The notes beneath the pieces were generated by a model, which saw nothing but the letters and a program-made list of their open reading frames with translations, made no database searches and was not told where the DNA came from. A DNA stretch of 43,633 bases, taken from the NCBI GenBank assembly GCA_000993115.1, contig LBVN01000003.1:1-43633 (forward strand). The letters run 5' to 3'. Made by a program: the position numbers and the translations under genes. This DNA comes from Candidatus Woesebacteria bacterium GW2011_GWB1_38_8b (GTDB taxonomy: Bacteria > Patescibacteriota > Microgenomatia > UBA8517). This document shows positions 29,535 to 42,920 of the stretch, in pieces. Positions within the stretch are counted from its first letter, which is position 1, and each line of letters begins with the position of its first letter.

Positions 29535-30086
29535 ATGTTAGCTAAATTTTTTGGGAAAATAAGACGATTGAGTGGTGTGTTTTTGATCTTGGCGGGTGTA
29601 TTTTTTCTGCTAGTTGCTGCCTTTGTAAAAAATTACTCGGAGAAAGTATTGTCTTTTTCAACTCCCGATGGCGGGGAGGAAGCCGTTTCTAAAGCTGCAA
29701 AGGTAAAAGAAATTTATATTGAAAGTTTAAACATCAAGTTGCCGATTACTGAGTCCAAAATCGAAAACGGTATATGGCAAGTATCGCAGGACGGCGCAAG
29801 CCATCTGGATATTTCGGCAAATCCGGGTGAGGGTGGAAATATTGTTTTATATGGCCACAACAAAGCAAATCTTTTTGGAAGACTTACAAGAATAAAAATC
29901 GGGCAGGTGGTTGAACTAAAAGACGAGTTTGGAATTACCCATAAGTATTCGGTTGAAAGTACGACAACCGTAACGCCCGATCAAATTGACTATGTTCTGC
30001 CTAAGAATACCGAAACACTGACGTTTTATACATGTGTTGGATTTATGGATTCAAAAAGGTTTATTGTAACCGCTAAACCAATATAA
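29535..30086 (+). CDS. Sortase (class D/E-like), catalytic triad intact
   Basis: TM; NIVLYGHN (His), TLTFYTC (Cys), KRFIV (Arg); TGa-TATAAT leaderless promoter. Confidence 0.9.
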   Translation: MLAKFFGKIRRLSGVFLILAGVFFLLVAAFVKNYSEKVLSFSTPDGGEEAVSKAAKVKEIYIESLNIKLPITESKIENGIWQVSQDGASHLDISANPGEGGNIVLYGHNKANLFGRLTRIKIGQVVELKDEFGITHKYSVESTTTVTPDQIDYVLPKNTETLTFYTCVGFMDSKRFIVTAKPI

Positions 30087-30167: not shown

Positions 30168-30836
30168 ATGAATTTCAGAAACCTTGCCAATTTTAGTACA
30201 ATTGTAGCGCTTTCTTTTATGTTACTTGCGCATACGGCTTTTGCGGCTGAATCAGAGTTTTCAGCGAGTGGTTTTGCCCAGTTTTGTGCAAAAAATCCAA
30301 GCATATGTAAAAAGGTAGATGTAAGCGGTAGGAAAGCCGGATTGAAATGTCCCGATTTTAACAATCAAATTGCAACAAAAGTTTATGTCCATGCAGGTGA
30401 CGGTCAGGTAATTTATGAAATGCCACACGTTGGGTTCAATTACGCAATCAACCTATACGGAGTTGGGGGAGCAGAAGTTGAAGTAACGACTCACAAACAC
30501 GATTTAAGCTGGGTTGCGGTTGAGTGTTCTTCTAAAAGCACTCCTAGCCAATCGCCTACGGTTACACCTGCGAATACATTAACACCCACTCAAACACCAA
30601 CTAGTACAGATACACCTGGTGTTACTGAAACACCAACACCAACCCCTACTAACGGAGAAAACAACAACAGTAATTCAAGTTCCGGCTCAAATGATTCCGG
30701 ACGTGGAGGCGCAGAAATCTTAGGTGCCACAACTCTTGCGTTTACAGGAGCTCCATTAACCGGAATTCCAACAATGATACTTTTGGGTGGACTTTCCATT
30801 CTTCTTCAGGGGTTTAAACTCATCATAAAAAAGTAA
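30168..30836 (+). CDS. Secreted Cys/His-containing protein with LAFTG sortase sorting signal
   Basis: Signal peptide AFA|A; Pro/Thr linker; EILGATT-LAFTG-hydrophobic-KK; adjacent to the sortase. Confidence 0.8.
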   Translation: MNFRNLANFSTIVALSFMLLAHTAFAAESEFSASGFAQFCAKNPSICKKVDVSGRKAGLKCPDFNNQIATKVYVHAGDGQVIYEMPHVGFNYAINLYGVGGAEVEVTTHKHDLSWVAVECSSKSTPSQSPTVTPANTLTPTQTPTSTDTPGVTETPTPTPTNGENNNSNSSSGSNDSGRGGAEILGATTLAFTGAPLTGIPTMILLGGLSILLQGFKLIIKK

Positions 30837-33427: not shown

Positions 33428-33624
33428 GTTAATCTTCCAATGTAAACCTTCCTAACAACTCCCTTTCGTTTTCCTTATAATTTTCAACAAATGATTGATA
33501 TGTCAAGATTTTAGATGGAAATTGTGATTTGTCGTTTTGAAACATTTGCAAAATTGGTTTTGGATTTAACCAATCGGGACAATTTATACCAATATAATAC
33601 TTATAGCTTGAATATTTGTATTTA

Positions 33625-33645
33625 TGCAAGGGATTATCCCTTGCA
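33625..33645. repeat. RAYT-associated palindrome inside the transposase CDS
   Basis: tgcaagggat-t-atcccttgca, perfect; reads ARDNPLH. Confidence 0.9.
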
Positions 33646-33913
33646 AGCAGCTCACTTGGATTAAGATGAATGTATCTTGATAAGTGAAGGAAATAGGATT
33701 CATCCAAGATAAGGACCGCTTTATACACACCCTGAAACAGCCTGCCGGTTCTTTCATAAGTTTTATTAAAATACATAGAATAGTTTGTTAAGAGAGCTTT
33801 AGAGAACCTTTTTAAACCATATTTTGATTTCTGACGAATAAGTAAATGGAAATGGTTGGGCATAAGGCAGTATGATATGAGTTCAATATCGTCATAACAA
33901 TTTAACGGTTTTC

Positions 33914-33934
33914 TACGAGGGATAATCCCTTGTA
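33914..33934. repeat. RAYT-associated palindrome inside the transposase CDS
   Basis: tacgagggat-a-atcccttgta, one G-T; reads IQGIIPR. Confidence 0.88.
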
Positions 33935-34122
33935 TTTTCAACAAATCTGGATGGTCGATTGGCAGTAAATATTCTTTGAGAAGCCTGAGAAAAACTGAAT
34001 AGTCCAAATCTCTTTGGAAAATCTTTCGTTTATCAACTCCTCGATTATATATGTGGTAGTATCCGCCTTCTATGTAAGTTTTAACTGAGTTTAATGGAGG
34101 CATATTTAATTTTATCATGCGC

Positions 34123-34292: not shown

Positions 34293-35705
34293 ATGAAGAA
34301 AATATTATCAAGCCTTACCATCCTCAGCCTGACACTTGCGCTAGCAATCGGATTTTCTCGGGCATTTTTCTCCGATACAGAAACTTCAAAAGATAACAAA
34401 CTCACAGCAGGAAAAATTGATTTACTTGTTGATAACACTTCTTATTACAACGGAGTAAAAAATGAAGGAACAACCTTTACTCCAAGCGATTTACCGGAAA
34501 AATATTTTTTCAATTTTACAGATTTAAAGCCAGATGATTACGGTGAAGATACGATAAGCTTGCACGTTGATGATAACGATGCTTGGGCTTGTATGAAAAT
34601 TACAAAGACTGCCGATGATGATAATACCTGCACTGAGCCTGAAAAAATTGACGATCCGTCGTGTTTGGAACCCGATAACGATACTGATGACGGTGAGCTT
34701 GGAGACAATCTACTCTTTGTTTTCTGGGCAGATGATGGTGATAATGTTTTGGAAGTTGGCGAAGATCCAACTTGGAGGAAAGGAAGCGCTTCAAGTCTTT
34801 TTGACGGAACCGTTTGGCCACTCGCTGATTCATCCTTCAATGTTTGGGGTGAAGCTTCTGGAACACGGTTGGCTCCAAATCCGCGACCAGTCGCCGAGTA
34901 TCCACTTGGTCCCGCTGGGGATAATAATGGAAACAATATAGCTGGTGAACCTGAAGACGGAGGATTTTTCTGTGACGGCGAGACTCTTAATAATGTAACC
35001 CAAACCGATATTTTCCTTGCAGATGTTGAATTTTGGGCAGAGCAGCGCCGACATAACGACAATTTCCGTTGCGACGGAACGACCCCATCAGGAACACCGA
35101 CAAATACTCCGACTCCAACTCCATCACTTGTTGCTTGCCAACAGGCTGATGTGATACTTGTGCTTGATAGGTCGGGAAGTATTGACGGCACAGAACTTGC
35201 TACTCTAAAAACCGCCGCAAAAACTTTCATTGACGATCTTGGTCTTTCAGCCTCAGGAATTCACGCAGGTTTCTCAAGTTTCGCAACTACTGCATCACTT
35301 AATCAGCACTTAACGGACAATGGCACAACAGTTAAAAACGCAATCGACCTACTTCCTTCAAGCGGATTTACAAACCTGAAAGAGGGAATTGATCTTGCAA
35401 TCGGTGAACATGCAAACCCCGGCGATAATCACGATAGAGAAGATGTTGGCTCTCCCGACAAAATGATAATTATTACGGACGGTCATCCGAACCGTCCACT
35501 TCCCGAATCAACTGCCGATGATGTTGCAAAAGCTTCGGCCGATGCAGCGAGGTCTGCTGGTGCTGAAGTCTATGTTGTCGGAATCGGAAGCGATGTAAAT
35601 GCAAGTTATCTGCAGACAGTAGCAAATGATGCAGGCCACTATTACCCGGTTTCGGGTTATGGCGGTCTTCAGACTGTGTTACAGAATTTGGACCTCTGCG
35701 ATTAG
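34293..35705 (+). CDS. TasA/CalY-like protein with SipW-type signal and C-terminal VWA domain
   Basis: SRA|FFSDTETSKDNKLTAGKIDL; DLKPDD.GE; VWA MIDAS DRSGS...TN...ITDG. Confidence 0.85.
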   Translation: MKKILSSLTILSLTLALAIGFSRAFFSDTETSKDNKLTAGKIDLLVDNTSYYNGVKNEGTTFTPSDLPEKYFFNFTDLKPDDYGEDTISLHVDDNDAWACMKITKTADDDNTCTEPEKIDDPSCLEPDNDTDDGELGDNLLFVFWADDGDNVLEVGEDPTWRKGSASSLFDGTVWPLADSSFNVWGEASGTRLAPNPRPVAEYPLGPAGDNNGNNIAGEPEDGGFFCDGETLNNVTQTDIFLADVEFWAEQRRHNDNFRCDGTTPSGTPTNTPTPTPSLVACQQADVILVLDRSGSIDGTELATLKTAAKTFIDDLGLSASGIHAGFSSFATTASLNQHLTDNGTTVKNAIDLLPSSGFTNLKEGIDLAIGEHANPGDNHDREDVGSPDKMIIITDGHPNRPLPESTADDVAKASADAARSAGAEVYVVGIGSDVNASYLQTVANDAGHYYPVSGYGGLQTVLQNLDLCD

Positions 35706-35756
35706 TGATTTAGCCTTGCAATAACTTGCTTCATCTTGCGGTATTTTATATATTTT

Positions 35757-35981
35757 ATGGCAATAGCAGTTGGAAAAGAAAACACCATTGGCACGGAAGC
35801 CGCGAGGAAAGCACGACAGGAAACAATACGGAAGCTAAGAGGAAATGAAATTCTTGAATTAGGGATGGTTATTGATGGGGTTGGTATAAAAGACGATATG
35901 AAGACACAGCGTCGAAAACTTAGAACACAATTAGGAGAAATTAACTGGGGTAATGTAATACCTGTTTGTGATAGTTCATAA
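35757..35981 (+). CDS. Small basic helical hypothetical protein (paralog array 1/4)
   Basis: ATG after -10-like TATATT; shares motifs with its neighbours. Confidence 0.6.
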   Translation: MAIAVGKENTIGTEAARKARQETIRKLRGNEILELGMVIDGVGIKDDMKTQRRKLRTQLGEINWGNVIPVCDSS

Positions 35982-35985
35982 AATT

Positions 35986-36198
35986 ATGGCAAAAGTAAAT
36001 GGTGGGATAGAGGTAGATTATTCAACTTTGAGTTCTGATGTGCTAAAGGTACATTTGGCAAAGAACATATGGGAAAGAAGAGTTGCCAGACGTATTAGAG
36101 GAAAAGGAAAAAGACAAATATTAGATAGTCTAGCTGAGAAACGAGAATTTATTAATAAAGCTCTAACGAAACAATCAGGTGCAGACGAAGTCGTTTGA
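35986..36198 (+). CDS. Small basic helical hypothetical protein (2/4)
   Basis: LKVHLAKN...KREFIN. Confidence 0.6.
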   Translation: MAKVNGGIEVDYSTLSSDVLKVHLAKNIWERRVARRIRGKGKRQILDSLAEKREFINKALTKQSGADEVV

Positions 36199-36209
36199 TT
36201 ATTAATTTT

Positions 36210-36419
36210 ATGGCAGAAATTAGTTTGGAGGAGCGAAAAATAAAAGAATTAGCCCTTAAAGCGCAGCTTGGACGAAACAGTCTGGATTATCAAAGATCAA
36301 GAAGGCGAAAGCATCCGGCTTTAACTTTTGAACAGCATTTAGAAATAGCTCAGGGAATAAAAAGGGAAATTAATAATTTAATTCATAACGGTCGAGTCGA
36401 GAGCGATTTCGTTATTTGA
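36210..36419 (+). CDS. Small basic helical hypothetical protein (3/4)
   Basis: LKAQLGRN...KREIN. Confidence 0.6.
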   Translation: MAEISLEERKIKELALKAQLGRNSLDYQRSRRRKHPALTFEQHLEIAQGIKREINNLIHNGRVESDFVI

Positions 36420-36441
36420 CCTTTTAAATATTATTTTGATT

Positions 36442-36702
36442 ATGGGAGTCGACAGATTTTTTGTCACAAACGTTCGGAGAGATTTACAAGGGGTATTGCA
36501 AGATAATGCTGCATTAGTTGCACAAACTGATGATGAAGACCTTAGAGCTCAGGCAAAAAAACTCGATGTAGCTTTAAGACAGCTGAATTGGGGTGGTGTG
36601 AGGAAGTTGGGTTTATTGGGTGAGGTTATTAAATTCGAAAATTTATGTAATGAGAGTGATGAGTCGATTTGGGTAACGGGGCCGGAAAACGCTGAGAGTT
36701 AA
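36442..36702 (+). CDS. Small helical hypothetical protein (4/4)
   Basis: LQGVLQDN...LRQLNWG. Confidence 0.6.
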   Translation: MGVDRFFVTNVRRDLQGVLQDNAALVAQTDDEDLRAQAKKLDVALRQLNWGGVRKLGLLGEVIKFENLCNESDESIWVTGPENAES

Positions 36703-36840: not shown

Positions 36841-37581
36841 ATGAAGAAATTTATAGCAATTTTAACAGGAGTAGTTTTAGTTTTTGCATTTGCATTGACT
36901 GCGAAAGCAGCATCAACTCTATTCGGTAGCGCCACAAACGAAGCGGGGGGTTGGGTACAAGCAGTTTCAGACACATCAGTTGCAGCAACACCTCTTGATG
37001 ATTACGGTGGAGTTTCTTTTGATGATGCAAACGGAACAACTTTCGCAAGTCTTACAGCATTGTCAACTGACTTTAATATTACCGACGATGACTGCGGAGG
37101 TGGATCTCCGAGGTTCTATATTAGGATGGACACGAATAACGATACAGTTTCTGACGGAAATATATTCGTTTATATGGGTCCAATACCAAGTTTTACAGGA
37201 TGTACGCCGAACACTTGGGTAAATACAGGTAATCTTGTAGGGTCAACTGATGCGCGATTTGACTTAACTCAATTGGGCGGACCGTTTTACGGCACCTATG
37301 CAAACGCGCTATCCCTTGTTGGCACAGGTACTATTCTTAGAATCGGTATCGTTGTAGATGGAAGTTGGGTAATGAGCGACCTGGAACAGACAGTATTATT
37401 CGATAATACTGTAGTAAATGGAACGAGTTATGACTTTACACCATTGCTAACTCCAACGAACAAGGATGAGTGTAAGAATGACGGATGGATGACATTTAAC
37501 AATCCTACATTCAAAAATCAGGGAGACTGTGTAAGTTACGTACAAAGTAACGAAAACGCAGTTGGGAATAAGACTAAATAG
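36841..37581 (+). CDS. Secreted beta-rich protein with C-terminal CKxxGW...FKNQGDCVS module
   Basis: SD ggaggtg preceded by hairpin gagatgctcc/ggagccatctc; signal peptide AKA|A. Confidence 0.8.
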   Translation: MKKFIAILTGVVLVFAFALTAKAASTLFGSATNEAGGWVQAVSDTSVAATPLDDYGGVSFDDANGTTFASLTALSTDFNITDDDCGGGSPRFYIRMDTNNDTVSDGNIFVYMGPIPSFTGCTPNTWVNTGNLVGSTDARFDLTQLGGPFYGTYANALSLVGTGTILRIGIVVDGSWVMSDLEQTVLFDNTVVNGTSYDFTPLLTPTNKDECKNDGWMTFNNPTFKNQGDCVSYVQSNENAVGNKTK

Positions 37582-37654: not shown

Positions 37655-37924
37655 ATGTATTACGTTTACCTGCTCAAAAGTTTAAAAGATAAAAAATATT
37701 ACATAGGTCAAACAGAGGATGTTACTAAGCGGTTTGAATTACACAACAGCGGAAAAGTAACATCAACCAAATATCGTAGACCGCTAGTATTGATCGGATA
37801 CGAAACGTTTAATACAAGAAATGAAGCCAGGTGGCACGAATACAATATGAAACAACATAGTGATAAAAAATACAAATTTATTAGAAAGCTGGAGTCCTTG
37901 AAAATGAATACCGAAGTTGGGTAA
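37655..37924 (+). CDS. Small GIY-YIG nuclease (UPF0213-like)
   Basis: YYVYLLKS...YYIGQT.D...R...HNSG...TK..RP...E.F....EA...E. Confidence 0.92.
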   Translation: MYYVYLLKSLKDKKYYIGQTEDVTKRFELHNSGKVTSTKYRRPLVLIGYETFNTRNEARWHEYNMKQHSDKKYKFIRKLESLKMNTEVG

Positions 37925-38013
37925 GGCTCAAATATCTGATCCAAAAATTTTGAATCGGAGAGAGAGCCTCCAGCCCGGAGGGCTTCCGGCCCGGAGGGGA
38001 GGTGAATAAAAAT

Positions 38014-38856
38014 ATGAAAAGAATTTTATTAAGCATTTCAACAATCGCATTAGTTGCAGCTTTTGTAGCTCTCGGCACAAATGCATTTTTCAATGACACT
38101 GAGACTTCAACTGGAAATAAGTTGGAAGCAGGTTCAATTGATCTTAAAGTAGATAATCATAGTTATATTGATCAAGGACACGGACTCGTAGAAAATGCTG
38201 ACACAACTTGGAGAGCAAGCGACCTGAATAACGAGACTCTTTTCTTTAATTTTACGGATTTAAAACCCGGAGATCTTGGAGAAGATACAATCAGCTTACA
38301 TGTTGATAGTAATCCATCATGGTTGTGTGCCGATATATCTTTGACTGCTGATGACGATGTTTCTTGTACTGAACCTGAAAAAGCTGACGATCCTACTTGT
38401 ACGGATCCGGGAGCACCTGGAAATACGACTCTTTTTGATGGGGAATTAGCTCATGCATTAAACTTTATTTTCTGGAAAGATGATGGAGATAATGTACTGG
38501 AAGATAATGAAGTTAATGGGATTCTGACACAAGGTCCGGCAAGTGGAGTATTAAATGGCGCCCATTGGGCACTTTTTGATTCATCAACAGGTGGACCGAC
38601 AGATCCTACACAAGTTTACTTTATAGGCAAAGCTTGGTGTTTTGGAGCATTAACACTTAATGCCGTAACTCAAGACAATTTACCGGGTCAGCCTACAAAT
38701 GGCCCCGATGTTAGAGGAGCAGGTGTAAAGTGCGACGGAACTTTAGTAAATAACGCAGCCCAAACCGATTTGGTTACGGGTGATGTTATATTCCGAGCAG
38801 TGCAGGCAAGGCATAATGATCCTTTCTATTGTGATGGAAGGCAATTGCCTGTGTAA
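38014..38856 (+). CDS. TasA/CalY-like protein with SipW-type signal (candidate major fibre subunit)
   Basis: SD ggaggtg; GTNA|FFNDTETSTGNKLEAGSIDLKV; DLKPGD.GEDTISLHV; paralog of 34293. Confidence 0.88.
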   Translation: MKRILLSISTIALVAAFVALGTNAFFNDTETSTGNKLEAGSIDLKVDNHSYIDQGHGLVENADTTWRASDLNNETLFFNFTDLKPGDLGEDTISLHVDSNPSWLCADISLTADDDVSCTEPEKADDPTCTDPGAPGNTTLFDGELAHALNFIFWKDDGDNVLEDNEVNGILTQGPASGVLNGAHWALFDSSTGGPTDPTQVYFIGKAWCFGALTLNAVTQDNLPGQPTNGPDVRGAGVKCDGTLVNNAAQTDLVTGDVIFRAVQARHNDPFYCDGRQLPV

Positions 38857-38877: not shown

Positions 38878-38991
38878 CCCCAGCCTTGGGTGGACTAATC
38901 TCTGCCCAAGTGCTAGGGGCGGAGAGTCCCAATAGATAGCTTACGCATCTAACGGGATCCTGTGAAGTGCGTTTAGCTACTTCACGGGGAT
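38878..38991. repeat. Cluster of three palindromes (REP-like)
   Basis: cttgggtgga/tctgcccaag; tccc..tagat/atcta..ggga; atcctgtgaagt/acttcacggggat. Confidence 0.7.
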
Positions 38992-39124
38992 TTGTTTGGT
39001 TTTTGTCCAGCACAAAAAATTTATAAATGTTGAATGTGAAGGGAGGTCAAGCCCTAGATTTGTTTAAAAATTGGTATTGCTCGTGCTAAAACAGCGCAAA
39101 CTTTCCTTAAAAAGGGAAATTAAT

Positions 39125-39421
39125 ATGAGCGGGTTAAACGTTGATCGTATAGAAAATGAAACATTAGTTACTGCGAGACTTGTTGTATCGGAATCTGACG
39201 GTGTAACAGGGATACGATTAGAAGATGCAGAGGTTTGTACTGGATGTAGGGTTCTTGGTATTGGCAACACTGCCTGTGTCCAAAAAGATGGACAGAGGCT
39301 CATTGTTGATAATCCGGAAGTTATTAAACCCGGTTTGGTAGTAGGGAAAGCACGCAGAGCAAGGACCACAATTGGGCAGTGTCCGATTAACCAATCGAGT
39401 GAAGTCGGCGCGTCAAATTAA
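39125..39421 (+). CDS. Small Cys-motif hypothetical protein
   Basis: SD aaggga; VDRI...CTGC-x9-CVQKDG. Confidence 0.55.
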   Translation: MSGLNVDRIENETLVTARLVVSESDGVTGIRLEDAEVCTGCRVLGIGNTACVQKDGQRLIVDNPEVIKPGLVVGKARRARTTIGQCPINQSSEVGASN

Positions 39422-39446
39422 AAAACTGACTTTAGAAAGGAAAAAT

Positions 39447-39641
39447 ATGGCTAACAAAGGAGTAGATAGGATATTAAAACAAATCGATGGGAATTCGGAA
39501 CCATTTATTAATTTGCCGCAAGCAAAATTAATGAAGTTTAACGGCGAAATAGTCAGGTTTCGTAGCGGGATAATGTGCGGCGGGTGTGTCGTGGGTAACG
39601 CTAACGGGCATGTTTGTTTTCAGCCTAACGGAGCGTTTTGA
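39447..39641 (+). CDS. Small Cys-motif hypothetical protein, paralog of 39125, possibly truncated
   Basis: SD agaaagg; VDRI...CGGC-x9-CFQPNG. Confidence 0.5.
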   Translation: MANKGVDRILKQIDGNSEPFINLPQAKLMKFNGEIVRFRSGIMCGGCVVGNANGHVCFQPNGAF

Positions 39642-39737
39642 ATTAGTTGATTGTCATGTATTGAAAGCTTATATGAGATTTAGAAGAACTGCTATTCTAC
39701 AAAGAGAGCAGATAATCTGATCTGATTAATTTTTTTA

Positions 39738-41096
39738 ATGAATAAGATAATTCGGAATTACAAGTGGGTAGTTTTCTTTTTAATTTCTTTTATTGCTTTT
39801 GAAGCCGGATTCGTTGCAACCTTAATTATTACGCCCCAAAAATTAACCGATACTTTTCAAAATCTGAAAATAGGGAAGGGGAGTCTGCCAAGAGTTTACA
39901 TCGTCCAATCGGGATCAATGGAACCGGCAATAAAAACCGGAAGTTTGGTATTTTCTATCCCGCAGAATAATTATAGGGTTGGGGAAGTGGTAACGTTTTC
40001 CCTCTCCCCTACCGGCAAAAATTTAGTAACCCACAGAATTAAAAGCATAAGCGGGGAAGAGGAGATAACAACAAAAGGAGATGCAAATGAGGATGCCGAC
40101 TCGCAGACTGTAAAATCGGGATCCATTGTCGGAAAAACAGCATTTACAGTTCCCTACCTCGGATATATCGCGAACTTCGCAAAAAATCCGAAAGGATTTA
40201 TCCTTTTAGTAATTGTTCCTGCAACAATAGTTATTTATGAGGAGATGAAGAATTTACGGAAAGAAATTGCAAAGTTCTTAGGAAAAGCGGGAAGTAAATT
40301 GTTTAAAAAGAAAAAGGGGAATATCCCTTCGACTTCGCTCAGGGTGGCCTACGGCCTAGATTATGCGTTCCCCTCTCCCCTGCCAAAAACGAAAAACGTT
40401 CCTGCTTACGCTATTGCAATCCCGGTTTTCGGAGTGCTTCTGGTTTTAATTGCTTTTTCGGCGAGTTATTTTTCCGACCGCGAAAAAAGCGAAAGTAATA
40501 TTCTCGGCGCGGCAGAGAGTTTTGGAACTCCTACCCCGACCTCAGCGACAAATGGAACCCCAACCCCGACACCGATTCCGACGGGTGGCGTAGTAGTTAA
40601 TGAAGTTTATTATCGAATAGCGAATGAGCATAAAATCGATAACAGTGAGGCAGGTTCTGAGTGGATTGAACTCTATAATTCTTCCGCTGTCCCAGTTGAT
40701 ATGACAGGTTGGTCTGTTACCGATAACACAAGCTGCGATGCTTTTCCCGCAACACCCTCTATAGCTCCTGGGGGGTTTGCGATTTTAACGACCCATACAG
40801 AAGCCGATTTTAGGGCTGTGTGGGGAAGTGTTCCGACAGGTGTAGTCTTTATTCAGAGTCCCACGGCGATTGGTAACGGATTGGCAAATAATGACGAGAT
40901 CATGTTAAAAAACGGCAGCTGTGCGGCAGGTACAATAATTGATCATATAAGCTGGGGCTCAAATGTCGTAGCGTTTAATCCATCAATACCACTGATTCCT
41001 ACAAGCGGTTCGTCGTCCGAACGAAATCCTGACGGGGTTGATACAAATACAAACGCAGATTTTACGACAAGCACTCCCCCAACACCGGGAATTTAA
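39738..41096 (+). CDS. sipW: SipW-type signal peptidase I fused to an internal SipW-type signal and a lamin-tail domain
   Basis: VQSGSMEPAI..G (Ser), VTHRI (His), TKGDANED.D, PYLGY; then TM-SAS|YFSDREKSESNILGA; VVVNEVY...EWIELYN...DMTGWSVTD. Confidence 0.85.
   Translation: MNKIIRNYKWVVFFLISFIAFEAGFVATLIITPQKLTDTFQNLKIGKGSLPRVYIVQSGSMEPAIKTGSLVFSIPQNNYRVGEVVTFSLSPTGKNLVTHRIKSISGEEEITTKGDANEDADSQTVKSGSIVGKTAFTVPYLGYIANFAKNPKGFILLVIVPATIVIYEEMKNLRKEIAKFLGKAGSKLFKKKKGNIPSTSLRVAYGLDYAFPSPLPKTKNVPAYAIAIPVFGVLLVLIAFSASYFSDREKSESNILGAAESFGTPTPTSATNGTPTPTPIPTGGVVVNEVYYRIANEHKIDNSEAGSEWIELYNSSAVPVDMTGWSVTDNTSCDAFPATPSIAPGGFAILTTHTEADFRAVWGSVPTGVVFIQSPTAIGNGLANNDEIMLKNGSCAAGTIIDHISWGSNVVAFNPSIPLIPTSGSSSERNPDGVDTNTNADFTTSTPPTPGI
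40323..40345. repeat. CTTCGACTTCGCTCAG-type palindromic element, in frame within the sipW CDS
   Basis: atcccttcgacttcgctcagggt, reads IPSTSLRV in the cytoplasmic linker. Confidence 0.6.
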
Positions 41097-41111: not shown

Positions 41112-42248
41112 ATGATAAAAAACAAAAATAGAAAAATAGTTGCACTTTTTCTTTTGCCCTTTGTTTTGGTAGGGCTACTTTATGTAATCAACAAAAAGCG
41201 TGTTAATGAAATTTATGCAGTTGATCCGATTGTTGTAACTTACGACGGAAATACTACTCCCGATGCAATTTTTGAAGTTTATAACATGCTGCCGGGGGAC
41301 GAGGTTGAAAAAATATTTAACGTCAAAAATAGTTCGACAAGCTCACTATCTGTTGTTTTGGACGGTATAAAAACCAGTGAGCTGAAGAATTTCTCGGAAA
41401 TCCTGGACGTGCTAATTTCGGACGACTCCGCCACCACTTATTTTTCGGGAAAACTGAAAGACTTTTTCTCAAGCCCCCCAATAAATCTTGGAACCTTCTC
41501 CCCCGGTCAGGATAAAAATTTCCATGTAAAAGTTAAATTTCCAACTTCTGCCGGAAATGAGTATCAGGAAGGCGCAGTTGTGTTTGATTTAATATTCAAA
41601 ACAGAAGGACCACCGATTGAACTCCCAGAGGAATGTAAGCATTTGTCGGGGAAAATTGTAAATGTAATTGAGGGGACTGATAATTATGATAACATCCGTG
41701 GAACATCTAGAGGGGACTTGATTTTGGCTAAGGGAGGCAAGGACAAAGTTGACGGGACTTCGGGGGACGACTGCATTATCGGCGGAGAAGGAAACGATAA
41801 AAGACTGGATGGCGGGTCCGGACGCGACACGATAGTAGGAGGCAACGGAGACGACTTTTTGGACGGAGGGGCAGAGGATGATTTAATGTATGGTGGTGAG
41901 GGAAATGACAAAATGGAAGGCGGATCGGGAAACGATAAAATTTATGGTGGAAATGGAAACGATAAAATAAACGGATCTTCACAGGAAGATCTTATTTACG
42001 GCGAAGCCGGGAACGATTATCTTTACGGCGGAAGCGGGGATGATGAGGTATACGGCGGTATTGGCGAAGATACAATTGTAGGAGATTCCGGTGATGATAA
42101 GTTGTACGGTGAAGAAAATAATGACAAATTGTACGGAGATTCAGGAGATGATTATTTAGACGGTGGACCGGACTTCGATTATCTTCGCGGAAATACGGGT
42201 ACAGATACTTGTGTGTTAGGTGAGACACTAGTTTCCTGTGAGCTTTAA
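41112..42248 (+). CDS. TasA-like domain plus RTX-type Ca-binding repeats
   Basis: N-terminal TM; NMLPGD...FNVKN...FPTSAGNEYQ; many GGxGxDxUx nonapeptides. Confidence 0.85.
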   Translation: MIKNKNRKIVALFLLPFVLVGLLYVINKKRVNEIYAVDPIVVTYDGNTTPDAIFEVYNMLPGDEVEKIFNVKNSSTSSLSVVLDGIKTSELKNFSEILDVLISDDSATTYFSGKLKDFFSSPPINLGTFSPGQDKNFHVKVKFPTSAGNEYQEGAVVFDLIFKTEGPPIELPEECKHLSGKIVNVIEGTDNYDNIRGTSRGDLILAKGGKDKVDGTSGDDCIIGGEGNDKRLDGGSGRDTIVGGNGDDFLDGGAEDDLMYGGEGNDKMEGGSGNDKIYGGNGNDKINGSSQEDLIYGEAGNDYLYGGSGDDEVYGGIGEDTIVGDSGDDKLYGEENNDKLYGDSGDDYLDGGPDFDYLRGNTGTDTCVLGETLVSCEL

Positions 42249-42296: not shown

Positions 42297-42920
42297 ATGG
42301 CTACTGCCAATAGACTTTTTCAATTTGTTTTTGTGCTTTTTTTTGGGACAATCGTGCTTTTTATAATTTTGTATTTTCCGATAATAGGAGCCGAAATAAA
42401 ATATACTTTAGCCAGAAAAGATGATGTTACAGTTATCATGCGTGGAAATCCAATTGAAGGCTTGAGGCGCACAATTGTTGCAAACGATACCGATTTTGGG
42501 ATTATTATTCCAAAAATTGGGATAAACATGAGCGTTGTGGCTAATGTTAACCCATACGAATCGTACTATTACAAACCGGCGCTTAAAAAAGGAGTTGCAC
42601 ACTCGAAAGGGTCAGCGTTTCCGGGAAAGGGTGGTAATATAATTATTTTTTCACACGTACCGGGAGGACTTTTTGAAGTTCAGAAATATAATTTGGCATT
42701 TTATTTAATCAACCGTCTTGAAATAGGAGACCCGATTTTTATATATTTTGACGGCTTAAAATATCAATATAATGTTACGGGAAAAAATGTTGTGAGTGAT
42801 TTGGATGTAAAGTTTGAGGACTTAAGCGTCAGTCCGAAAACCGAGTTGTTAACGATAATGACACTTTGGCCTCCGGGAACATCACTTCGCCGTTATGTTA
42901 TCGACGCGAAAAAGGTCTGA
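42297..42920 (+). CDS. Sortase-family protein lacking the catalytic Cys
   Basis: IIIPKIG, GVAH..GS..PG..GN..IFSH, LTIMT-L-WPPGT..RR; Leu codon CTT at the Cys position. Confidence 0.85.
   Translation: MATANRLFQFVFVLFFGTIVLFIILYFPIIGAEIKYTLARKDDVTVIMRGNPIEGLRRTIVANDTDFGIIIPKIGINMSVVANVNPYESYYYKPALKKGVAHSKGSAFPGKGGNIIIFSHVPGGLFEVQKYNLAFYLINRLEIGDPIFIYFDGLKYQYNVTGKNVVSDLDVKFEDLSVSPKTELLTIMTLWPPGTSLRRYVIDAKKV

Follow-up and report, generated by a model that had tools for sequence, protein, structure and literature searches.

An endoplasmic-reticulum-type signal peptidase fused through a putative internal signal to a candidate TasA-fibre starter protein in Patescibacteria

Architecture of the fused frame

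The window analysed here, a stretch of 43,633 nucleotides (nt) of contig LBVN01000003.1 from Candidatus Woesebacteria bacterium GW2011_GWB1_38_8b, an ultra-small inhabitant of groundwater (genome assembly of 903,868 bases, 85.6% complete), contains at 39738..41096 on the plus strand an open reading frame (ORF) in which a signal peptidase of the endoplasmic reticulum (ER) type is joined to a lamin-tail domain. The frame stays open under translation table 11 to its stop codon at 41094-41096, and its 452-residue product has full-length relatives at 33-56% identity and 96-100% coverage. A preliminary description of this DNA had interpreted the ORF as a signal peptidase fused to its own substrate, with a peptidase domain, membrane helix, basic linker, further membrane helix, SAS motif, Pro/Thr linker and lamin-tail domain in succession, and all of these elements are present in this order. 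In what follows, ORFs are designated by their start coordinates in the window, and features lie on the plus strand unless stated otherwise.

The chain begins with a transmembrane (TM) anchor, TM1, delineated by hydropathy (residues 13-31; 39774..39830) and preceded by three Lys/Arg residues; the AlphaFold2 (AF2) model places a helix at residues 2-30. The ER/archaeal-type signal peptidase I domain follows (residues 49-170; 39882..40247; TIGR02228; MEROPS S26B-like), with Ser60 in the motif SGSMEP (codon 39915-39917) and His99 in the motif THR (codon 40032-40034). TM2 (residues 153-167; 40194..40238), which is part of the TIGR02228 match and lies within an AF2 helix spanning residues 151-188, is predicted to lead from outside to inside and into a basic loop (residues 168-220; 40239..40397) that by its charge is predicted to be cytoplasmic, and in which the predicted local distance difference test (pLDDT) score falls below 50 for residues 193-220. 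TM3 (residues 221-243; 40398..40466), the putative internal signal peptide of the SipW type, has a hydrophobic core at residues 221-239 with a mean Kyte-Doolittle value of 2.46 and ends in S241-A242-S243, positions -3 to -1 of the predicted cleavage site; there, F-S-A-S243 is followed by Y244-FSDREKSESNILGA, in the letters quoted by the preliminary description. The donor-strand-like motif YFSDREKSESN ILGAA (residues 244-259; 40467..40514) would start with Tyr244 as a new N-terminus, and the residues downstream of Ser243, Y244-FSDREKSESNILGAA, precede a linker that is Pro/Thr-rich in sequence (residues 263-284; 40524..40589), with pLDDT below 50 for residues 265-277. The remainder of the chain is the lamin-tail domain (residues 285-452; 40590..41093).

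This domain is recognised by Pfam PF00932 with 56 bits against a gathering cut-off of 34.3 (E 6.1e-15, residues 281-407), and is modelled with pLDDT above 90. The model matches the lamin immunoglobulin (Ig) folds 3jt0 and 1ifr in Foldseek, and the lamin-tail part is predicted with confidence as an Ig-like fold. In the AF2 model of the full protein, computed with 72 homologues in the alignment, single domains are confident and the predicted template modelling (pTM) score is 0.43. Contigs from four runs of four studies (X10, 39956-40600; X5, 39938-40531; X7, 39632-40382 and 40357-40560; X15, 40185-40624) span the junction, from the last part of the peptidase domain through TM2, loop and TM3 to the site, with 0 differences and no indels. 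A near-identical relative (P0002; 98-100% over the shared parts) shows an in-frame loss of residues 315-388, which removes the core of the lamin-tail domain, as well as the substitutions E62Q and V71E, and is either a variant strain whose passenger domain is crippled or the product of a collapsed assembly.

The peptidase half matches TIGR02228 (sigpep_I_arch) at 93 bits when the protein is scanned and 95.6 bits when the genome is searched (cut-off 51.85), and the same model matches all 72 fused homologues. In the alignment of these full-length proteins S58, G59, S60, M61, P63, H99, R100, D115, N117 and D121 are invariant, and the TM2 residues G153, F154, V158, P161, A162, I164 and Y167 are kept in at least 90% of the sequences. 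The catalytic pair is Ser60 and His99, i.e., Ser-His rather than Ser-Lys, which in the consulted part of the published account defines the ER-type class (PMC10269814). Consistent with this assignment, the top structural matches of the AF2 model in Foldseek are human SEC11C and SEC11A (7p2q_A, E 3.8e-6; 7p2p_A, E 1.6e-5), which are also the only solved relatives that phmmer finds by sequence in the PDB. Given the TIGR02228 score above cut-off, the invariance of the Ser, His and Asp residues in 72 homologues and SEC11A/SEC11C as nearest solved relatives, the peptidase half is intact and looks active. With 93.7 bits it stays under the cut-off of 190 of the Bacillus SipW equivalog model NF046067, and we use the term SipW-like in a functional sense only. 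The genome search found no other enzyme of the SipW type in this 85.6%-complete genome, which encodes one LepB-type enzyme on another contig and two TIGR04088-type substrates, the TasA-like products of ORFs 38002 and 34293. Since it is the sole SipW-type enzyme found, the fused protein must, on this gene inventory, serve those two SipW-cognate substrates.

The putative internal signal and its donor-strand-like motif

In the parts of the published accounts of the Bacillus system on which we draw here, TasA fibres assemble by donor-strand exchange, in which the sheet of the next subunit is completed by 11 residues from the mature N-terminus, Phe among them at +2 (PMC9674648), and a subunit extends its own strand only once it has itself been complemented (PMC10151520, PMC9674648). 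The minor protein TapA is likewise processed by SipW and begins with five mature residues nearly identical to those of TasA, and its Ig domain is complete, hence it is placed at the filament start only; colocalisation with the membrane and anchoring of TasA have been reported for it as well (PMC10151520, PMC9674648). A truncated form, tapA1-57, that secretes 14 residues still supports biofilm formation (PMC10151520). Furthermore, an aromatic residue at P2' hinders LepB, TasA with its Phe at P2' is processed by SipW, and the stretch from P3 to P4' is reported to matter for signal-peptidase processing of TasA (PMC10269814).

The motif behind TM3 has counterparts in the two neighbouring TasA-like genes. 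The parallel drawn in the preliminary description, between the SAS motif and SRA followed by FFSDTETSKDNKLTA in ORF 34293 and TNA followed by FFNDTETSTGNKLEA in ORF 38002, is borne out: with a slash at the predicted cut, ORF 34293 carries SRA/FFSDTETSKDN, ORF 38002 carries TNA/FFNDTETSTGN and the fused ORF carries SAS/YFSDREKSESN, and YFSDREKSESN ILGAA aligns position for position with FFNDTETSTGN KLEAG of ORF 38002. When positions +1 to +16 are aligned with ORF 38002 and its 17 orthologues, F+2, D+4, E+6, S+8, N+11 and A+15 are held in common, and at least 90% of the 72 aligned sequences retain F245, D247 and N254. In its residues, including the Phe at +2, the motif matches the TasA donor strand as given in the consulted part of the published account (PMC9674648). 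A six-frame search of all 903,868 bases with a pattern of a hydrophobic stretch followed by [FY]F.D.E..S..N returned four matches, three of which are ORF 34293, ORF 38002 and the fused ORF; the fourth, on another contig (C15), is not membrane-like and unconvincing. A profile of signal and strand built from the 18 TasA-like orthologues and run against 5401 stop-to-stop frames recovered ORF 38002 (by construction), ORF 34293 (E 1.7e-17) and, as the sole extra match in the genome, the fused ORF. By these comparisons the likeness to TasA-like signals and strands is real but diverged, and the internal strands form a conserved subclass of their own, with D-x-E-[KT]-S where the fibre subunits have D-T-E-T-S, and with Tyr at +1 as often as Phe. 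The putative signal itself is, unlike the SipW-cognate class, not N-terminal: two membrane helices precede it, and it starts at residue 221 of the 452.

The loop between TM2 and TM3 contains 13 Lys/Arg residues against 4 Asp/Glu (residues 168-227), and a net positive charge recurs in 86 of 87 relatives (median +5). Because of this positive charge, under the positive-inside rule, the site faces outward, on the same side as the catalytic domain; judged from charge, TM3 exits the cytoplasm and the motif lies outside the membrane. Neither of the two sequence-based conditions that the preliminary description named as refuting its reading, a cytoplasmic motif and a motif not conserved in homologues, is borne out. 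We collected 97 distinct internal sites with a regular expression that starts at +1, such that the upstream residues were not selected by the pattern. Position -1 is Ala, Gly or Ser in 94 of these sites and position -3 is Ala, Gly, Ser, Thr or Val in 96, while -2, -4 and -5 vary; downstream, Phe is found at +2 in 86, Asp at +4 in 96, Glu at +6 in 88, Ser at +8 in 84, Asn at +11 in 95 and Ala at +15 in 76. The grammar of a cleavage site is, to judge from this pattern of constant and variable positions, under selection. Moreover, the uncharged stretch ahead of the site has a median length of 20 residues (n=188) compared with 21 in the N-terminal signals of TasA-like proteins (n=69), and therefore TM3 is no longer than a real signal of this class.

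Fused, short-tailed and split forms among relatives

Two protein searches yielded 237 proteins (query included), 223 of them with a peptidase domain, and the internal site stands behind this domain in 197 of the 223. The tails of these 197 proteins comprise a lamin-tail domain in 133 cases, another tail of at least 60 residues in 42, a tail of fewer than 60 residues in 21 and a lamin-tail domain together with a TasA-like domain in one; a further 17 proteins combine peptidase and lamin-tail domains with a site missed by the pattern, and several of these show degenerate variants by eye. A library clustered at 50% identity holds 324 representatives at E<=1e-30. Within the fused clade, TM3 and the site persist in many proteins that have exchanged or shed the lamin-tail domain, which, as far as sequence comparison can tell, makes the strand more important than its passenger. 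In two cases (L034:7869-9308 and P0121) the peptidase is fused to a TasA-like core instead of the lamin-tail domain; the core is X-like in L034 (X being the gene at 41112 described below), and in P0121 TasA-like sequence directly follows the site. This arrangement would join the enzyme to a fibre subunit. Public records label the fused proteins simply as signal peptidase I.

One genome per species was scanned, and the resulting 54 loci were classified with profiles built from our own alignments. The fused frame is present in 27 of them. Peptidase, site and lamin-tail domain share one frame in 15 loci, and in one more (L046) peptidase and lamin-tail domain do so with a site missed by the pattern; 11 loci combine peptidase and site with another or a very short tail, and one (L026) has the lamin-tail part in another frame. 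In 17 loci the system is split into a short sipW gene and a separate lamin-tail gene that follows it, whereas seven have a peptidase with neither site nor lamin-tail gene, one is cut by a contig end and one lacks a peptidase frame. In the short-tail class as few as 19 (L027), 32 (L025), 43 (L015) or 47 (L023) residues remain after the site.

The split forms are informative with regard to the nature of the C-terminal half. Their sipW genes encode 147-233 amino acids and end after TM2 and a short basic tail; the long basic loop is peculiar to the fused form and is found in none of the split ones. The lamin-tail gene starts between -92 and +95 nt from the sipW stop across the 17 loci, and between -14 and +95 nt in 16 of them, with a 4-nt overlap of stop and start in seven. 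Most of its products have an N-terminal signal peptide followed by a motif of the type GA/YFSD..SGN. The C-terminal half of the fused protein shares 53% identity with P0136 and 50% with P0150, two lamin-tail proteins that stand alone, and the N-terminal signal peptides of both align with TM3. By this alignment, the C-terminal half is orthologous to separately encoded lamin-tail proteins that bear signal peptides, a case of Rosetta-stone evidence. That the C-terminal half is a substrate of the N-terminal half, as first suggested from the letters of the window, accordingly looks right, given that separate lamin-tail genes with the same motif occur in 17 of the 54 loci.

A quick maximum-likelihood tree was built for 52 peptidase domains (the window and 51 loci), excluding rows with a peptidase match of fewer than 100 residues and counting L026 and L046 as fused. 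One branch, with a Shimodaira-Hasegawa-like approximate likelihood-ratio test (SH-aLRT) value of 98, separates 17 split and 4 unclassified domains from 29 site-bearing and 2 unclassified ones, such that the fused or split state changes once on the peptidase tree. Given this single change and the retention of the site in 197 of 223 proteins, the fusion is, on the evidence of the tree, old and maintained; on this unrooted tree the one change may have been either a fusion or a fission. The nearest peptidase domains come from records labelled Woesebacteria or from mislabelled metagenome bins, and the split forms from records labelled Berkelbacteria, Moranbacteria, Parcubacteria, Beckwithbacteria and, in some cases, Saccharibacteria.

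In some genomes with the fused gene, second, stand-alone SipW-type genes (218-226 codons) lie a few kilobases downstream (L004:11689-12366, L005:15921-16598, L006:15297-15950 and L022:13911-14564, all four on the minus strand). In such genomes the second enzyme could cut the fused precursor in trans; no gene of this kind was found in the 85.6%-complete genome of the window itself.

The fibre locus and a possible starter function

Across the loci of Patescibacteria the conserved gene order is one to three TasA-like genes (M), sipW, the lamin-tail gene and X. In the window, M is ORF 38002 (38002..38856), a TasA/camelysin-like fibre subunit with a SipW-cognate signal, whose true start is probably the ATG at 38014; it matches Peptidase_M73 with 30 bits and TIGR04088 with 27-30.6 bits, both above cut-off, and nearly all loci have an orthologue of it immediately before sipW. 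In ORF 34293 (34293..35705), a second TasA-like N-terminus, which TIGR04088 scores at 22.2 bits when the genome is searched, is fused to a von Willebrand A (VWA) domain (E 2.7e-23). Gene X (41112..42248) encodes an ordinary signal peptide, a TasA-like core and a C-terminal repeats-in-toxin (RTX) beta-roll (E 1.9e-42) of about 20 nonapeptide repeats, with the C-terminal end C..GE...CEL. It lacks the FFSD strand, its core starting about where the fibre subunits continue past the donor strand. The model of X (pLDDT 92.6) matches the TasA fibre (8aur_A, E 3.9e-5), the archaeal bundling pilin AbpA (7ueg) and TasA monomers (5of1, 5of2) in Foldseek. In 28 of the 54 loci phmmer detects X immediately behind sipW or the lamin-tail gene; the C-terminus of X usually consists of membrane helices rather than RTX repeats in split lineages, and of a lamin-tail domain in L003 and L009. 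X is a candidate for an end subunit that only accepts a strand.

A terminator-like hairpin of 12 pairs with a T-run lies behind the major-subunit gene (38958..38989); it is weak, such sites being no commoner in the region than in shuffled sequence, and could lower read-through into the peptidase gene. An IS200-like Y1 transposase gene (33429..34118, minus strand) at the cluster and a gene for a small GIY-YIG protein (37655..37924) inside it suggest that the fibre genes were pushed apart by mobile insertions. Six small ORFs of 74-116 codons lie between the fibre genes (35736..36702 and 39071..39641), where related loci have only short gaps; they match no Pfam family and have no other copy in the genome, and show weak pairwise similarity of 35736 with 36436 and of 39071 with 39372 (29% over 75 residues, E 3e-4). 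Between the two TasA-like genes, ORF 36841 (36841..37581) encodes a 246-residue protein that has a plain signal peptide and matches no family. The window also contains two sortase genes, 42297..42920 and 29535..30086. Beside the latter, a 222-codon ORF (30168..30836) ends in LAFTG-APLTG, a hydrophobic stretch and KLIIKK, and looks like a sortase substrate, whereas a tail of the sortase type is absent from all proteins of the fibre cluster. The C-terminal PTPGI of the fused protein was considered as a signal for sortase 42297 and rejected: in split and fused relatives alike the lamin-tail domain nearly always ends in PTPG, and PTPGI is not followed by a hydrophobic tail.

We propose, with a probability that we put at roughly 0.6, that the fused ORF encodes a SipW-like peptidase joined to a counterpart of TapA that donates a strand to a TasA-type fibre, as its starter or cap, and is released by cleavage after Ser243. 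The comparison with SipW and TapA is drawn because the C-terminal half appears to have the traits of TapA, with the Ig-like lamin-tail domain in place of the TapA domain. TM1 would insert with the N-terminus inside, so that the catalytic domain with Ser60 and His99 folds on the outer face of the membrane; TM2 would bring the chain back to the cytoplasm, and TM3, past the basic loop, would act as an internal signal peptide that exports everything behind it. The SipW-type active site would then cut after Ser243, either in its own chain or in a neighbouring copy, leaving a three-helix peptidase in the membrane and freeing a protein of about 209 residues, in which the first 11 (YFSDREKSESN) mimic the donor strand of TasA-like subunits and are followed by the flexible Pro/Thr linker and a presumably complete Ig-like lamin-tail domain. 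The freed protein may donate residues 244-254 to a TasA-like subunit. It would offer a strand without possessing a TasA-type groove in which to accept one, and therefore would be expected at only one end of a donor-strand-exchange fibre of 38002 and 34293 subunits, as starter or cap. The product of X, a strand-less TasA-like core, may take the opposite end of the fibre and receive the free strand there. An earlier suggestion from the sequence, that the released subunit caps or decorates the fibre, agrees with the role published for TapA as far as the consulted text describes it (PMC10151520, PMC9674648).

The resemblance to the Bacillus tapA-sipW-tasA system extends to the substrates with an aromatic P2' residue (PMC10269814), to a minor protein with a copy of the donor strand at its mature N-terminus, which is here a predicted one, ahead of an Ig-like domain that is complete in TapA, to the tight coupling of the genes for the peptidase and the minor protein, with the tapA stop overlapping the sipW start in Bacillus (PMC10151520, PMC9674648, in the parts available), and to the sufficiency of a short N-terminal TapA peptide for function. 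In contrast to Bacillus, the peptidase and the TapA-like part are here one polypeptide with the signal internal, behind two helices and a cytoplasmic loop; the order is sipW and then its partner rather than tapA and then sipW; the lamin-tail Ig-like domain takes the place of the TapA fold, sequence likeness to TapA being known for the N-terminal motif only; and the conserved set includes a third, strand-less TasA-like protein, X. The split sets of other Patescibacteria have the same four kinds of gene in the same order and the same motif at the start of the lamin-tail protein, but there the peptidase ends after TM2 and a short basic tail, and the lamin-tail protein has its own start codon and N-terminal signal. 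A mid-precursor hydrophobic signal with a far-side cut by an ER-type Ser-His peptidase, as predicted here, is also seen in viral polyproteins, in which internal signal peptides are cut by the host ER signal peptidase complex (SEC11); there, enzyme and substrate are separate, one of the host and the other of the virus. Another S26 fold tied to the assembly of surface fibres is SipA (LepA) of Streptococcus pyogenes (Foldseek match 4n31, E 1.5e-4), which is needed for pilus polymerisation in sortase-built pili and reportedly lacks the catalytic residues and acts as a chaperone, whereas the fused protein keeps all catalytic residues.

Several observations weigh against release by cleavage. The signal-and-strand profile scores the internal site only weakly (E 0.033, 12.4 bits), and TIGR04088 (cut-off 19 bits) gives no match to the whole fused protein at E<=0.01 and none at E<=10 to the 94-residue internal segment, which on its own returns only an irrelevant LptF match (E 0.1); among the 72 fused homologues, seven are matched by TIGR04088 at E<=0.01, the best at 1.3e-4. 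AF2 models residues 223-246 as one continuous helix, with moderate confidence only, and does not bring the site near the active site at Ser60 (pTM 0.43). A cut signal peptide would stay tethered to the enzyme by the loop, which is unusual and might block the active site, and the small residues at -1 and -3 may in part be a legacy of an ancestral N-terminal signal instead of a mark of current function. Finally, the short-tail forms, which fit the finding that the strand alone can suffice in tapA1-57, fit an uncleaved, membrane-anchored strand equally well. The continuous helix with its undocked site, the failure of TIGR04088 on the internal segment and the tails of 19-47 residues, which make sense as a tethered strand, are thus shared by a rival that we take seriously while holding it unlikely: the site would remain uncut, TM3 would be a permanent third helix, and the peptidase would display the strand and the lamin-tail domain, doubling as anchor and nucleation point of the fibre, in line with the membrane localisation and anchoring role reported for TapA. 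However, the small residues at -1 and -3 are kept while their neighbours vary, the hydrophobic stretch is as long as that of true TasA-like N-terminal signals, and the split lineages have this segment as a normal signal peptide at the N-terminus; moreover, an uncut strand would begin at the end of a helix and be pinned to the membrane, whereas the strands of TasA and TapA, in the parts of the accounts consulted, have a free N-terminus (PMC10151520, PMC9674648).

Conceivably, the C-terminal part is cut and secreted and has nothing to do with the fibre, the lamin-tail protein being an independent surface- or matrix-binding protein on the SipW route and the motif a recognition element of the peptidase only. 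Lamin-tail domains do occur in many unrelated secreted bacterial proteins, the ExeM exonuclease model is touched by 5 of the 72 homologues, and passenger domains vary widely. We nevertheless regard this alternative as clearly improbable: conservation extends to +16 (N+11 in 95 and A+15 in 76 of 97 sites), beyond the P3-P4' stretch described in the available part of the processing study (PMC10269814); the conserved block coincides with the 11-residue TasA donor strand, as described in the text consulted (PMC9674648), and the segment behind it; proteins that have lost all domains downstream of the strand still retain it; and synteny with TasA-like genes on both sides is constant. Hardly credible, finally, is an artefact of assembly or gene calling, in which a lost stop codon or a frameshift would have merged two genes. 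Split versions in other lineages and the displaced lamin-tail frame of L026 might bring it to mind, but the identical, indel-free junction in contigs from four studies and the recurrence of the fused frame in relatives, where the fused forms make up one clade with a long basic loop of its own, rule it out within the reach of sequence data.

Within the proposed release of a TapA-like starter, a stricter version may be envisaged that we consider doubtful: cleavage would be obligatorily intramolecular and occur once per molecule, such that each new peptidase first cuts off its own tail and delivers one starter per peptidase beside the translocon through which the TasA-like subunits come out, with the retained TM3 as a third helix that gates or tunes the active site. 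If so, the number of fibres would be hard-wired to the number of peptidases, in keeping with the coupling of amounts envisaged at the outset. The fibres would be polar, with the lamin-tail protein at one end and strand-less X, anchored through its RTX repeats or in the membrane, at the other, a chaperone- and usher-free analogue of the tip and terminator subunits of Gram-negative pili.

Signal peptidases are normally separate from their substrates, and bacterial signal peptides are normally N-terminal. TasA fibres, a TapA-type starter and a dedicated SipW are known; the new feature is an enzyme covalently joined to its presumed substrate by an internal signal, an arrangement conserved in a large clade. 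No natural fusion of SipW with a substrate or with a lamin-tail domain was found in the literature, subscription journals and supplements lying outside the scope of the search, and TasA homologues are noted in Patescibacteria in the part of one account available to us (PMC9245690).

If a starter is released as proposed, Tyr244 should be the new N-terminus, the product should weigh about 23 kDa and its release should require Ser60, and the fibre should be polar, with different subunits at its two ends. A conserved enzyme-substrate fusion would offer a compact, single-gene system for recognition and cutting by an ER-type signal peptidase, possibly in cis. As a Rosetta stone, the fusion points to lamin-tail proteins with a TasA-like first strand as working partners of the SipW/TasA machinery, and therefore the idea of a starter that acts by strand donation, as in TapA, may extend from Bacillus to Patescibacteria. 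In this very large group of ultra-small, host-attached bacteria, surface fibres are likely to matter for attachment.

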